Shown here in pieces: positions 8,738 to 14,422 of a stretch of 17,398 nucleotides of DNA. The notes beneath the pieces were generated by a model, which saw only the letters and a program-made list of their open reading frames with translations, searched no databases and had not been told where the DNA came from. The first letter of the stretch is position 1. Every line of letters starts with the position of its first letter. The position numbers were made by a program, and so were the translations under genes. This DNA is from a virus. Lineage: Duplodnaviria > Heunggongvirae > Uroviricota > Caudoviricetes. The stretch lies in the IMG/VR virus record IMGVR_UViG_2778261177_000007, positions 1-17,398 of that record. One strand, written 5' to 3'.

Positions 8738-8986
8738 AGCTAAAGTATTAGCTTAAAAATAAAGTATACCTAGCGAATATAATCTAGGACTAGTTGTAAC
8801 GCCCGAAATGATTGATTGCGTGAGCAACAAAATTTTTCTTCCATTGTTGTGAAATCATTTAGCCATAAAGTTTATGCAGAGATTTTATTTTATTTTTGAG
8901 TTGATTTTTTTGTAACGAGCTGTATATTTCGCGCCTCTTGTCATACCAGTTATTTTTTTCATTATATTCATAACGTTGATTGAACT

Positions 8987-11900
8987 ATGACCACTGTGAA
9001 TAAAAAGTTAAAAAAAACTGCATCTGGCGCGATTACATGGTCGGTAATTGTTACCCAGATATTATCTCCAGTTTCTCTTTCTTTGATCCCAGCAAACAGT
9101 TTTGCATCATCTGGTAATAAAGATGTTACGCAAACTTATGCCAGCGATGAGCATGCAAATAAAGTGGCCTCATTTGCAGCAAGTGCAGGTCAGAGCCTGG
9201 CGAATAATAATGCAAGTAGTTTTGCTGTAAATACTTTATCAACTCAGGCGACAAAAGAGGTCGTCGACTGGTTGCAACAATATGGCAATGCGCGCATCAA
9301 GCTTAATGTCGATGATTCTTTTTCCTTGAAGGATTCATCATTCGACTTTTTATATCCATGGCTGGATACTCAGGATTATGTGCTATTCAGTCAGACATCA
9401 CTACATCGTACTGATGACCGAAATCAGACCAATATTGGTTTGGGGATTCGTCATTTCACTCCTGATAACGCAATGTTGGGTGCGAATGTTTTCTATGATT
9501 ACGATTTAAGTCGCAGTCACTCTCGTGCAGGTTTTGGGGTTGAGTACTGGAGAGATTATTTCAGGCTTGGTGTAAATACCTATTTTGGTTTGTCTGACTG
9601 GAAGAACAGTCGGGATATTGATGATTATCTGGAAAGACCCGCAAATGGCTGGGATTTTTCTGCTGAAGGATGGCTACCTGCTTATCCGCAATTAGGGGCA
9701 TCCATTCAGTTTGAAAAATATTATGGTAAAAATGTCGGGTTATTTGGAAGCGATAATCTGCAGGAAAACCCTTACGCAGTTACTGGGGGAATTTCTTATA
9801 CACCAGTTCCTCTGATTAAGTTTTCTGCACAGCATAAGCAAGGACAGAGCAACGTTCACGATACAACCTTTGGTGTTGAGTTTAATTATCGCCCGGGCGT
9901 TTCCCTTGCTGAACAGCTTAGCAGTGACAATGTTGCTGTTATGCGAGAAGTCCAGAACCGGCGTTATGATTTTGTTGAACGAAATAACAACATTGTTCTG
10001 GAGTACAAGAAGAAGCATGCACTGAAAATCAGTTTGCCAGAGTCTGTTCAGGGGGAGGGGGAATCAATCATCCCTGTAACACTGACAATCAACAATGCTA
10101 GTGGTGGTATCAAGTCTGTACAGTGGAATGATAGTGCATTCACTGCGGCTGGCGGCAAGATCAGTGGAAATGGCACATCATGGCAGATCACTTTACCGGC
10201 TTATAAAAGCGAAGGTGTAAATTCGTGGAATGTTGGAGCCACAGTACAGGATAACAGAGGCAACGTTTCCAACTATGCCGTGATGAATATTAGCGTTACT
10301 GATAGTGGTGTCTCGACGGCTGATTCGTCTTTTACACTGGATGGAGATTCGTCGCCGACGATCTCTGTTGATAGCCAATCCACTTATCCGATAGTATTAA
10401 GCCTGAAAGATAGTAACGGTAAGGCATTAACCGGACTGGCTGATGACATTGAAATGTCAGTGGAATTTACAGCAGATAGCAATAGTGCTCGACAGCGTGA
10501 AACGGTAACTGCTCCGTCATTAGGCGCGGTAGAGGAAATCTCTGCTGGGGTATATCGCTCTGTTCTGACTGCTGGTTCGCAGGCTGGTACGGTACGTGTA
10601 ACTGCAAAAGTTCAGGGAAAAACCTTTACTCTGAATATTAAGCAGGCAGCCATTACTGATAGTGATGTATCGACAGCTGATTCGTCTTTTACACTGGATG
10701 GAGATTCGTCGCCGACGATCTCTGTTGATAGCCAATCCACTTATCCGATAGTATTAAGCCTGAAAGATAGTAACGGTAAGGCATTAACCGGACTGGCTGA
10801 TGACATTGAAATGTCAGTGGAATTTACAGCAGATAGCAATAGTGCTCGACAGCGTGAAACGGTAACTGCTCCGTCATTAGGCGCGGTAGAGGAAATCTCT
10901 GCTGGGGTATATCGCTCTGTTCTGACTGCTGGTTCGCAGGCTGGTACGGTACGTGTAACTGCAAAAGTTCAGGGAAAAACATTTACTCTCAGTATTAAGC
11001 AAACAGCAGCAACAGAACCTGATTCTGAGGTCAGTGCTGTTTTAACCGCTGCACCAGCAGAACAGGTAGTTGGTTACAATATCAATCTACAACTGGCAGT
11101 GAAGGATTCACAAGGAAATGCAATCACTGGTGATAACACTCTGAGCTTTTATGCTCTTAACCAGGCAGAAGGAGTCGAGTTTGGGACTGTAACGGAAAAA
11201 GACGGTGTCTATAGCGCGACAGTAACTTCAAAACGAGCTGGTAAGATTACTATCGGTGTTAAATCTGATAGTCATGATTTCTCAGGTGTTAAGAAAGAAA
11301 TCACCTTTATTGAGGACCGGCAGCAGGTTACATTCTCTCAGTTTGAAGCCAGCCAAAATAATGCATTGGCTGATGGAAAACAGAGAAATATGGTAACTGT
11401 AAGCCTTGCGGACCGTTTCGGCAATGTTGTTCCTGGTTATGCTGTCACATTGTCTTTACCAGCAGGGATAACTCAAGTTGGTGGTGAACATGCTGTTTCA
11501 ACTGACGAAAATGGTAATGCTATTTTTGCGTTAATAAGCTCCACTCCGGGGTCTTACGTGATTACAGCTCATGCTGGTTCTCAGATGTCTACTGAGTTAA
11601 CAGTGACCTTTGCATCAAATATGACCGGAGCTTCACTGTCACTGACGCCTGAAAGCAGTAGTTTAATTTCCAATATTCCTGCTAATGGTAAGGATGCAGC
11701 GGTATTAGATGTGCAGCTGACAAATACGAATGCGTCGGTCAATGGGCAAAAGATTCAGCTCATCACCTCATCTGAAGGATTATCTATACCAACAAATATC
11801 GTGACTGATTCAACAGGGCATGTTTCTGTTCCGCTTACAACGGTGAAAGCTGGTGAGTACACGGTGACTGCACGGGTGACTGACGGTTCCCATAGCGTGG

Positions 11901-12933: not shown

Positions 12934-13975
12934 ACAGGTTAGCGTTTGGGTTTTGTTGTTGGGGAGCTGTTTTTATAGGCGCTCCCAGGTTTTTAGTAAA
13001 CCACTCAACGACTCTGTTTATAATAATTGGCTGATACCATGTCTTATCGCCATGCTCGGCCCCTTCTACCAGCACGTACTCAGCGTTATCGCCGTTCTTC
13101 TTCAACATCCTGAATAGTTTGGCGCTTTGCTCAGGTGAAACCAGAGTGTCTTTGCTACCATGCATAATAAGAAATGGGGGTTTTACTCCTTTCATATGTC
13201 CGATTGGACTGGCGTTTAGCGCTTTTTCTTTTGACGCTGTGATGGGGGCTCCCGCAAAATTTCTGAATGCAGGGCCATTGATCATTAAGGCTTCGGTTAC
13301 GGCAGGAGAGCGATGAACCTCCTGCACTGATTCAGGGAACCCCTCGCCAATATTCAACAAGTCAGAAATCCCATAAAGTGTGGCAACTGCCTGAACATCT
13401 GAGGATTGCTGAAGAAAGTCACCTTTATCAAAGGTTTTGTCACCATTTGTAGTTCCCATCATCTGAGCAAGCCATCCACCGGCAGAGTCACCCAGAACTC
13501 CGATTCTTTGAGGATCAATCCCATAATTGCTGGCATGCTCTCTCAGGTAACGTATTGCAGCTTTTCCATCCTCAACTGGTGCTGGAAATGTATCAGGAAT
13601 TGTTCTGTATTCTACAGCGGCCACAACAAAACCAGCTTCTGCCAGAGCCATTCTCATTTCAATAAATTTGTCATGTTCAGAAGACATGAATCCGCCGCCG
13701 GGATAATAAATAATGGCTGGTTTTAAATCATTTGTTCGCGGGACAAGAACTGACATGTGAAGCTGTTTGACAGAACGAGTTCCTTTTATCTGGGAATAAA
13801 CAACATCACCAATGAGATCGACCTGGTTTCTGGTCGGTGAAACACTAATGATATCTGCACCCGGGGTGTAACCAGGAAGATTAGTCTGGACAGGTGTTGC
13901 ACAACTCCCGACCGACATGGCCATTGACATACCATACAATAGTGTTGCAGATGATAATATCTTGTTAATTTTCAT
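12932..13975 (-). CDS. Secreted alpha/beta-hydrolase esterase/lipase (HSL/Aes-like), probable lipoprotein
   Basis: 347-aa ORF; signal peptide ending in a lipobox-like SVGSC; oxyanion-hole motif YYPGGGF; nucleophile elbow GDSAGG; C-terminal His in EGAEHGD. Confidence 0.8.
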   Translation of the reverse strand: MKINKILSSATLLYGMSMAMSVGSCATPVQTNLPGYTPGADIISVSPTRNQVDLIGDVVYSQIKGTRSVKQLHMSVLVPRTNDLKPAIIYYPGGGFMSSEHDKFIEMRMALAEAGFVVAAVEYRTIPDTFPAPVEDGKAAIRYLREHASNYGIDPQRIGVLGDSAGGWLAQMMGTTNGDKTFDKGDFLQQSSDVQAVATLYGISDLLNIGEGFPESVQEVHRSPAVTEALMINGPAFRNFAGAPITASKEKALNASPIGHMKGVKPPFLIMHGSKDTLVSPEQSAKLFRMLKKNGDNAEYVLVEGAEHGDKTWYQPIIINRVVEWFTKNLGAPIKTAPQQQNPNANL

Positions 13976-14422
13976 GTTTTACATGCCTTGACTTATCGGA
14001 TGAAATTCTCTTACTGAATTTAACGGCAGTTTAATAGCCGTACAACTCGTGGTAGCCAGGGAAATATCCCAGTCGTGGTTAAGGTTGTACTTGACGGCTA
14101 TTATTTCAACAATGCTTAAAGTGAGAGCTTAAGGTTATGCGTATGTTTTACAGTCCGAGTAGATTCTGACCAATAGCTTCTTTGTATAATTCTGTCAGAA
14201 ATAAATCTTGGCTTGCATGAAGTTTGAGACCTTATCTTGTTTGATTATGAATAATCAATTCGCCATAATTGTATCACCGGAGCCTGAACAACTCCGGTGA
14301 CTTCTGCGCTAAACGGGGACGTTTATGCGCACATACAATCCAAACTCTCTTCTCCCTTCACAGATGCAGAAATGCACCTGCGATATCTTGCATCCAGCGT
14401 TTGATCTCTGCGGAGGTGAAGC

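Follow-up and report, generated by a model that had tools for sequence, protein, structure and literature searches.

The stretch of DNA analysed here (the window, 17,398 nucleotides, positions 1 to 17,398 of IMG/VR record IMGVR_UViG_2778261177_000007) contains the left arm of a lambdoid E. coli prophage, as judged from its gene order and from comparison with related prophages. Behind replication gene P it carries, in this order, an AT-rich spacer, a gene for an inverse autotransporter (IAT) of 1302 amino acids (aa), a GC-rich hairpin and a convergently oriented esterase gene, after which the phage backbone returns with ylcH and ybcN. An initial annotation, made from the sequence alone, had listed the spacer, the 1302-aa IAT and the convergent esterase, all of which are indeed present, and had suggested that adhesin and esterase may form one unit, as the best candidate for an undescribed system. 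We arrived at a different view: the two are, with good probability, independent cargo genes (morons), which were brought together by recombination in a hyper-variable slot between P (or P and ren) and ylcH-ybcN of DLP12/Bievrevirus-like phages. The features of the island are the following:

8728-8986, + strand: left junction and AT-rich region upstream of the IAT gene, presumed promoter/silencing region
8987-12895, + strand: IAT open reading frame (ORF), 1302 aa, with IAT_beta and Big_1/Invasin_D3 matches
10296-11001, + strand: tandem 357-bp repeat, two copies
12907-12927, + strand: GC-rich hairpin, followed by CUUUUUA, the IAT intrinsic terminator
12928-12934, no strand: CTTTTTA, 7-nucleotide (nt) overlap forming the junction between IAT cassette and esterase cassette
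12932-13975, - strand: esterase ORF, 347 aa, BD-FAE/Abhydrolase_3
13976-14280, - strand: esterase upstream region, 305 bp, 37% GC

The limits of the cassettes were derived from pairwise blastn comparisons of the window with related loci. The breakpoints are sharp: the IAT cassette extends from 8728 to 12934 and the esterase cassette from 12928 to 14280, and they overlap only in the sequence CTTTTTA. Phages 4A7 and Perceval and the genome NZ_CP015076, which have the esterase gene without the IAT gene, match window positions 6483-8727 (O and P) and then 12928-14824, and hold ren-emrE-(50 aa)-ybcK between P and the esterase gene. The reverse arrangement was found in a prophage of NZ_CP086624, which matches the window at 7573-12934 and then at 14281-14824, its order being P, IAT, hairpin and then straight into ylcH-ybcN. 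In phage 82 and several PhiR phages the homology resumes at window position 14240. PhiR30_1 has neither gene, its slot being occupied by ren, a small ORF, an acyltransferase gene and a gene for an outer-membrane lipoprotein, and in DLP12 of K-12 we take the slot to contain ren-emrE-ybcK-ybcL-ybcM. At least five sets of cargo are thus on record for the slot from P(/ren) to ylcH-ybcN, which marks it as a hot spot of recombination.

These comparisons bear out the claim of the initial annotation that the early-right region of this lambdoid prophage carries non-backbone cargo, the related phages and prophages having IAT alone, esterase alone or neither gene in the same place. The proposed limits of the island (8738-14422) have to be moved: cargo does follow P, but the homology to related phages on the P side stops at 8727, 10 nt ahead of the P stop codon, and the backbone resumes at about 14240-14281, which gives an island of 5.5 kb. 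Likewise, the slot named P-ren-ninB is real, but ren is not part of the window arrangement, in which IAT with or without esterase takes the place of ren-emrE-ybcK. The left breakpoint falls inside the 3' end of P (8728-8737), and the last three or so P codons differ between IAT-carrying prophages and prophages in which P overlaps ren.

The hairpin located between the two stop codons has a stem of 9 bp, 7 of them GC, with a dG of -18.1 kcal/mol. It had been described as a terminator shared by the two genes. A hairpin is there, but a proper U-tract follows it only on the + strand, the tail on the - strand, CAUUCAAUUUUG, being a poor U-tract; the hairpin is kept in IAT-only prophages, and we assign it to the IAT cassette. 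In 4A7 the esterase cassette is bordered on its left by another hairpin (AGCCCGCA-TAAG-TGCGGGCT) followed by the identical CTTTTTACAGGT; the edge thus abuts a different hairpin with the same tract, which places the junctions at terminator T-tracts. The same was seen in three contexts (window 12928-12940; L002 5980-6012; L004 9410-9436), which have distinct GC-rich stems and a common CTTTTTA(CAGGT) edge tract. This suggests that cassette exchange happens at, or is tolerated only at, terminator T-tracts. Region 13976-14280 accompanies the esterase gene in every arrangement, and presumably holds the esterase's own promoter.

In base composition the island differs from the backbone, as had been noted: its GC content is 43.3%, compared with 47.8% in window 1-8727 and 50.7% in O and P, and its GC content at third codon positions is 36-39%, compared with 50-62% in the comparison regions. 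The spacer (8738-8986, 249 bp) has only 30% GC. By presence or absence among related phages, by the terminator and by the lowered GC and third-position GC the cassettes qualify as phage morons.

The IAT_beta profile (PF11924) matched aa 57-334 of the 1302-aa ORF (nt 9155-9988) with an E-value of 4.9e-101 and a score of 338 bits, the cut-off being 22.3, and is N-terminal to a passenger with five Big_1 and six Invasin_D3 matches in Pfam. An N-terminal Sec signal peptide (MTTVNKKLKK...PANSFA|SSG) was recognised by eye. The predicted layout is signal peptide, 12-strand beta-barrel, D00-like domain and approximately 9-10 Ig-like domains, and by its barrel, signal peptide and Ig-like passenger the protein classifies as an inverse autotransporter (type Ve). 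The barrel matches those of invasin (1e-73) and intimin (8e-63) (4e1t/4e1s), residues 342-441 match intimin D00, and the passenger has segments that match FdeC (4e9l) and invasin (1cwv). No LysM or lectin domain was matched in it by Pfam. With FdeC of the same genome the IAT shares 33% identity, collinear over 1205 aa; the protein does not qualify as an FdeC orthologue, and that genome has fdeC as a further gene at the fdeC locus. All eight named NCBIfam IAT models scored it under their curated cut-offs (391 to 272 bits), the best being the IatC N-terminal model (391 bits, cut-off 2400), with SinH at 317 bits (cut-off 999).

The first 120 homologues listed for the IAT are all at least 93% identical. 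The 357-bp repeat is present in 2.0 copies, which are 98% alike, each encoding 119 aa or one Ig-like domain. The protein was met in lengths of 1302, 1421 and 1540 aa, and the spacing points to a form of about 1183 aa, which makes one (by this reckoning) to four repeat copies per strain; since the copy number varies, the length of the adhesin stalk is polymorphic. Comparison of the window allele with an IAT-only allele (241 substitutions) gave dS (synonymous) and dN (nonsynonymous) values of 0.189 and 0.030, i.e. a dN/dS ratio (omega) of 0.157, with 0.079 for the barrel, 0.171 for the passenger and 0.075-0.119 for the adjoining P gene. The IAT gene is under purifying selection. C-terminal passenger alleles of 100%, 91% and 88% identity occur with the same N-terminus, which suggests recombination in the passenger. 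A related IAT of 1186 aa, 66% identical in its N-terminal part, is located beside an integrase gene at the end of an unrelated prophage (L043 5527-11537); there is no esterase gene, and host kduI/iolB-like genes follow. It appears that prophages have taken up IATs as cargo repeatedly, and not always in the same position.

The census of Goh et al. (2019), in its account of E. coli IATs, distinguishes seven groups, namely intimin, FdeC, YeeJ and IatA-D, reports surface display and biofilm formation upon expression of IatB-D, and mentions an effect of the regulator LeuO on iatB transcript levels (PMC6714894). Strain JJ1886 belongs to the dataset of that census and was scored there only for the seven named groups (PMC6714894). 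The icd prophage of JJ1886 carries the present IAT as a 1421-aa protein; this lineage was therefore not separately described in the census. Our literature search on prophage IATs, ST131 invasin/intimin-like genes, the four RefSeq protein accessions and Bievrevirus morons found no paper on this gene pair or on this IAT. Both genes are already annotated by the NCBI annotation pipeline in hundreds of genomes, and both have PHROG families.

The 347-aa protein matched BD-FAE with an E-value of 5.6e-45 (153.9 bits, cut-off 26.8) over positions 7-214 of the 215 of the profile, and matched Abhydrolase_3 as well. In an alignment with 11 orthologues (63-75% identity) the invariant residues were P92-G-G-G-F96, G162-D-S164-x-G166, D276 and H308. 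The window protein, with GDS164AG, D276 and H308, has an intact Ser-Asp-His triad and a PGGGF oxyanion motif. By profile, triad and oxyanion motif it is assigned to the BD-FAE/HSL-type alpha/beta-hydrolase esterases; the expected domain families (IAT beta-domain, Big_1, alpha/beta hydrolase) were thus correctly named for both proteins. Its best relative in the PDB is Lip_vut4/C3L (6nkf, 1.9e-37), followed by a GH43-carbohydrate-esterase bifunctional enzyme and acetyl-xylan/carbohydrate esterases at about 1e-21 to 1e-22. Every NCBIfam esterase equivalog model, those for PaeX and AxeA1 among them, scored it far under its cut-off. Two specific identities were considered and rejected, pectin acetylesterase PaeX by its 46 bits (cut-off 550) and a NanS-p-like sialate esterase by the lack of an SGNH match.

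Plant-associated Enterobacterales are among the sources of orthologues, which are encoded in Dickeya, Pectobacterium, Pantoea, Kosakonia, Kluyvera, Klebsiella oxytoca, Enterobacter, Rahnella, Rhizobium/Agrobacterium and Variovorax; those of Dickeya, Pectobacterium, Pantoea, K. oxytoca, Kluyvera and Rhizobium show 62-80% identity, and one from Dickeya aquatica bears the name 'Ferulate esterase'. In Dickeya the type II secretion system exports a feruloyl esterase, FaeD (PMC9007343; bioRxiv 10.1101/568105). A homologue of 75% identity (P0124) is encoded in an operon, 16 nt downstream of a phenolic-acid decarboxylase gene (L009 7478-9047; L010-L012), and on the longest of these four contigs (L009) a divergent LysR regulator gene and two more carboxylesterase ORFs are nearby. 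A decarboxylase is the expected partner of an enzyme freeing ferulic or p-coumaric acid, and the locus looks like one for hydroxycinnamate-ester utilisation. Most likely, the protein from the window is exported and acts as a hydroxycinnamoyl or acetyl carbohydrate esterase, its substrates being esters of plant origin.

The initial annotation had called the esterase a lipoprotein. Its N-terminus MKINKILSSATLLYGMSMAMSVGS-C25-ATP (MKINK...SVGS|C25) does fit, by eye, a PROSITE-style lipobox pattern, but this motif is the sole basis for the name, and beyond the E. coli phages the orthologues do not share the Cys. Cys25 was read in four of four E. coli and phage alleles, IAT-linked and unlinked alike, which led us to reject the idea that it is specific to IAT-linked alleles; the orthologues from elsewhere have ordinary signal peptides, in ten of 11 without the Cys, and one E. 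coli cluster representative has Tyr. Lipidation of the esterase is possible, as a clade-specific trait.

Homologues of the esterase gene were noticed in further settings. One (73% identity) is in a different cargo block of phage PHB10, beside an aromatic alcohol reductase gene. Another, of 370 aa and 80% identity, is located on a metagenome contig (L013 515-7229) near genes for a 1307-aa SPATE (Peptidase_S6) autotransporter and a PerC-family regulator; this contig is not E. coli and has no close match among complete E. coli genomes, and two E. coli plasmids carry copies of about 82% identity.

The 5' part of the IAT gene with the upstream spacer was detected in 560 of 5426 complete E. coli genomes, and the esterase gene in 681 of them (682 records, 499 at identities of at least 99% and 183 at 95-99%). 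A junction probe consisting of the IAT 3' end, the hairpin and the esterase 3' end was intact in 431 genomes. Other probe matches comprised the IAT end with 24 nt of the esterase gene, together with a second place in the same genome, the esterase part only (97.3% identity), and the IAT part only (89.9% identity; 53 records in the 80-90% band). Matches of the first kind are insertions of the insertion sequence (IS) family IS66 at about 12955, as seen in ST131. Some genomes, those of ST131 strains among them, have an IS66-family element (ISEc23/ISCro1) at about 12947-12955, only a few codons short of the esterase stop; it parts the esterase gene from the terminator of the IAT gene, and the conserved ...A-NL tail at the C-terminus is lost.

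In IMG/VR we found 27 E. coli-type IAT loci, all of them after P: 17 continue with the esterase gene, four go straight to ybcN, and six are cut by the contig end. There was no IAT in 50,697 phage records, where the only two matches were a Salmonella contig and an intimin fragment. The esterase gene without IAT was present in seven isolated phages (4A7, Lambda_4C10, D2, 1W, 3W, PhiR47_2 and Perceval; eight records), where, as in some E. coli genomes, it follows ren-emrE-ybcK. Packaging size as the reason for the absence of IAT from isolated phages was rejected, the IAT prophage of NZ_CP148326 being about 47 kb long with ren-emrE-ybcK lost. The thrW IAT prophage, of about 47 kb, is structurally complete except for annotated frameshifts in int and in the tape-measure gene.

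The proposal that adhesin and esterase form one unit did not survive these comparisons: the genes belong to separate cassettes with their own breakpoints and regulatory regions, are oriented oppositely and differ in distribution, and arrangements with IAT only or esterase only are common, so that co-inheritance does not define a two-gene system. That they often occur together is best explained by their being physically linked in a single prophage lineage that has spread widely, and this lineage with both genes has recombined into backbones at icd and at thrW. The interpretation as two independently acquired morons is built on the observed anatomy, family membership, separability and distribution of the genes and on the purifying selection; the following steps, concerning adhesin or biofilm role, regulation, substrate and lipidation, are more conjectural.

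If the IAT follows type Ve biology, it would be exported by Sec, its 12-strand barrel would be inserted with the assistance of BAM, and the Ig-like rod, its length tuned by the copy number of the 119-aa repeat, would be secreted through a hairpin intermediate. By homology it would help the lysogen in adhesion, as a surface adhesin, or in biofilm formation. Its AT-rich upstream region (30% GC) is probably silenced by H-NS, as those of fdeC, yeeJ and iatB. The gene has the same orientation as O, P and the early transcript from pR, and because of this co-orientation with O and P it could be read from pR during lytic growth; transcription would end at its own intrinsic terminator. The esterase gene would be transcribed oppositely, from its own upstream region, and its product would be a Sec-exported serine esterase, possibly anchored by lipid, which most likely frees hydroxycinnamic or acetyl groups from esters of plant origin, in the gut or in the environment. 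Each gene may profit the lysogen alone, and joint action would not be required.

It must be noted that several points weigh against this interpretation. The genome counts, approximately 495 with both genes, 60 with IAT only and 180 with esterase only among the 5426, are estimates from identity bands and coverage classes and not per-genome counts. About 88% of the IAT carriers also carry the esterase gene; many such genomes are clonally related (ST131), and taken alone the counts may be compatible with a selected association of the two genes. Upstream of the IAT gene there are two weak sigma-70-like sites (8901-8928 and 8938-8965), but promoter-like sites numbered 14 against 12.2 expected from shuffles, i.e. 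they are not enriched, which bears on the own promoter that a moron is supposed to have. The adhesin role of the IAT is drawn from homology. The last 113 aa of the protein gave only a sub-threshold Big_1 match (E 0.052), and a single-sequence AlphaFold2 model of the tip (aa 1085-1302) was unusable, with a pLDDT of 35.5; the end appears consistent with a terminal Ig-like domain and not with a lectin. The substrate proposed for the esterase reflects its family and the gene context of homologues, not the window protein itself.

Alternatively, the cargo might serve the phage, the surface protein or the esterase altering or masking receptors and so guarding the lysogen from superinfection. The company it keeps would agree with this, as in relatives the same slot holds Ren (exclusion), an acyltransferase and an outer-membrane lipoprotein, and the IAT gene is co-oriented with the early transcript from pR. 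However, the IAT family is known for adhesion and biofilm formation (PMC6714894), the family context of the esterase is the metabolism of plant-phenolic and carbohydrate esters, and the 50,697 phage records yielded no isolated phage with an IAT. We think that such a role is improbable.

Similarly low is the probability we attach to the idea that adhesin and esterase constitute one colonisation or surface-remodelling module, in which the esterase would unmask or remodel the ligand of the IAT or the bacterial surface. The genes are neighbours that converge on an intervening terminator, they co-occur in about 495 of the approximately 560 IAT-carrying complete genomes and in 17 of the 21 informative IMG/VR loci, and in another contig a distant esterase homologue lies near a SPATE autotransporter gene. 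Against this, each gene is found alone, the esterase gene in viable phages and either gene in prophages, the cassette boundaries separate the two exactly, each gene is transcribed towards the other from a region of its own, so that they form no operon, the esterase orthologues of other genera had no IAT neighbour in the contexts that were read, and the related IAT of L043 has no esterase. It is conceivable, though very doubtful, that the linkage is non-accidental in a more specific sense, the esterase stripping feruloyl or acetyl groups from glycans of plants or mucus, or from surface polymers of the cell itself, and thereby exposing a ligand or clearing the way for the IAT; if true, this would amount to a phage-delivered two-step attachment for lysogens such as ST131. 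More likely than this is the separate reading, according to which the IAT would represent an overlooked eighth E. coli IAT lineage with clinical relevance and the esterase would explain strain-variable hydroxycinnamate-esterase activity in gut E. coli.

That the two genes are inert hitch-hikers, silent and functionless DNA kept with a prophage remnant, is hardly likely: the window prophage has indeed lost its late region to IS3 elements, in certain ST131 genomes IS66 has inserted at the 3' end of the esterase gene, or the IAT gene is truncated and annotated only as 'Ig-like domain-containing protein', and the upstream region is AT-rich as in silenced genes, but the 3.9-kb ORF is intact in hundreds of genomes, dN/dS between alleles is 0.157 at a dS of 0.19, and the esterase has invariant catalytic residues and is carried by viable phages with packaging limits. 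The initial annotation had named ordinary tail-fibre or lysis genes, or unexpressed pseudogenes, as outcomes speaking against its proposal; the two genes are neither tail or lysis genes nor decaying pseudogenes.

The remainder of the window is prophage backbone and IS elements:

1-1143, - strand: int
5390-6145, - strand: cI-like repressor gene
6484-7023, + strand: cII/YdaT-like gene
7020-8039, + strand: O
8036-8737, + strand: replication protein P, left backbone flank (Pfam Phage_lambda_P PF06992, E 8.5e-62)
14241-14301, + strand: backbone resumption, promoter-like site TTGATT-17-CATAAT and inverted repeat with 8-bp stem
14325-14426, + strand: ylcH/orf33 homologue, 33 aa, backbone
14423-14827, + strand: ybcN/NinB-family gene, truncated
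14831-15598, - strand: IS3-family transposase sequence
16055-16258: tail-fibre-assembly gene fragment
16332-17398, + strand: IS3-family transposase sequence

Window positions 1-14824 are collinear, at 98-99% identity, with the icd prophage of the ST131 strain JJ1886, position 1 being the integrase stop, and positions 2601-14824 are collinear with the thrW prophage of strain Z1323HEC0475 (99.0% identity). Region 14241-14301 corresponds to the putative -35/-10 signals and the inverted-repeat 'possible regulator-binding site' annotated in phage 82. The ybcN product is 134 aa long here and 151 aa elsewhere, an IS3-family element having inserted at 14824/14825. The window lacks the regions for nin, Q, lysis, head and tail that the JJ1886 and Z1323HEC0475 prophages possess, and the window prophage is an IS-deleted remnant which has retained the immunity region and the cargo. 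An Rfam scan of positions 8500-14900 gave no match at E<=1. The thrW prophage of Z1323HEC0475 has a gene for a DGQHR-domain protein between exo and TraR-like genes (L001 4833-5897), and at this position of the early-left region the window and JJ1886 differ from it; the gene may be defence-type cargo. Downstream of its lysis genes the icd prophage of JJ1886 also carries iss, a homologue of bor linked to increased serum survival (L017 21162-21455), and thus delivers three candidate lysogenic-conversion genes, those for the IAT, the esterase and Iss.

The IAT and the esterase are uncharacterised members of known families. Present in approximately 10% of complete E. coli genomes and in the iss-carrying icd prophage of JJ1886, and under purifying selection, the IAT is a reasonable candidate for an adhesin, biofilm factor or surface antigen in ST131. 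With the esterase, a family of the plant-cell-wall type is moving into gut E. coli on viable temperate phages. Six human colonic strains hydrolysing chlorogenic acid were described by Couteau et al. (2001), as cited in PMC4335975. A phage-borne, FaeD-like esterase would be one explanation of such activity in particular strains, and could underlie strain-specific release of dietary hydroxycinnamates. Several of the six colonic strains are reportedly E. coli. The P/ren-ybcN slot with its T-tract junctions is, in addition, a clean example of cargo shuffling among mosaic lambdoid phages.

It is instructive to compare the cargo with known systems. The closest in architecture to the IAT is FdeC/EaeH, which has the same succession of signal peptide, IAT barrel, D00-like domain and long, entirely Ig-like passenger without LysM or lectin tip; the IAT differs from FdeC by the identity of only 33%, by its prophage slot instead of the fdeC locus and by the 119-aa repeat of variable copy number. 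Barrel homology extends to intimin, invasin, IatC, SinH (IatB), YchO (IatA), Ilp and YrIlm, but the IAT scores under every cut-off of the named families, and neither LysM nor a C-type lectin domain was detected. The esterase shares with the BD-FAE feruloyl/acetyl-xylan esterases the full-length Pfam match, the GDSAG and PGGGF motifs and a signal peptide. It is 63-69% identical to the Dickeya orthologues P0132, P0163 and P0189, one of them being the protein named 'Ferulate esterase', and differs from them in being phage-borne in E. coli and in the lipobox-like Cys at the cleavage site.

The initial annotation had considered such cargo non-standard for a phage; prophage genes for outer-membrane proteins and adhesins, and esterase cargo, are however of known kinds. 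Bor/Iss, Lom, Eib and NanS-p are surface or secreted phage cargo expressed by the lysogen, as the window cargo would be. The Eib immunoglobulin-binding proteins are trimeric, type Vc autotransporters, and the IAT is of type Ve. NanS-p proteins are SGNH-type sialate O-acetylesterases encoded near the late genes, unlike the esterase from the window, an HSL/BD-FAE alpha/beta-hydrolase encoded in the early-right region. Further counterparts are the lambdoid ren-ninB morons (DLP12 and the emrE-ybcK-esterase arrangement of Bievrevirus), which occupy the same slot with the same flanks, P and ylcH-ybcN, and which share with the window cargo terminator-bounded cassettes of lower GC content and presence/absence polymorphism; in the window, IAT with or without esterase has replaced ren-emrE-ybcK.

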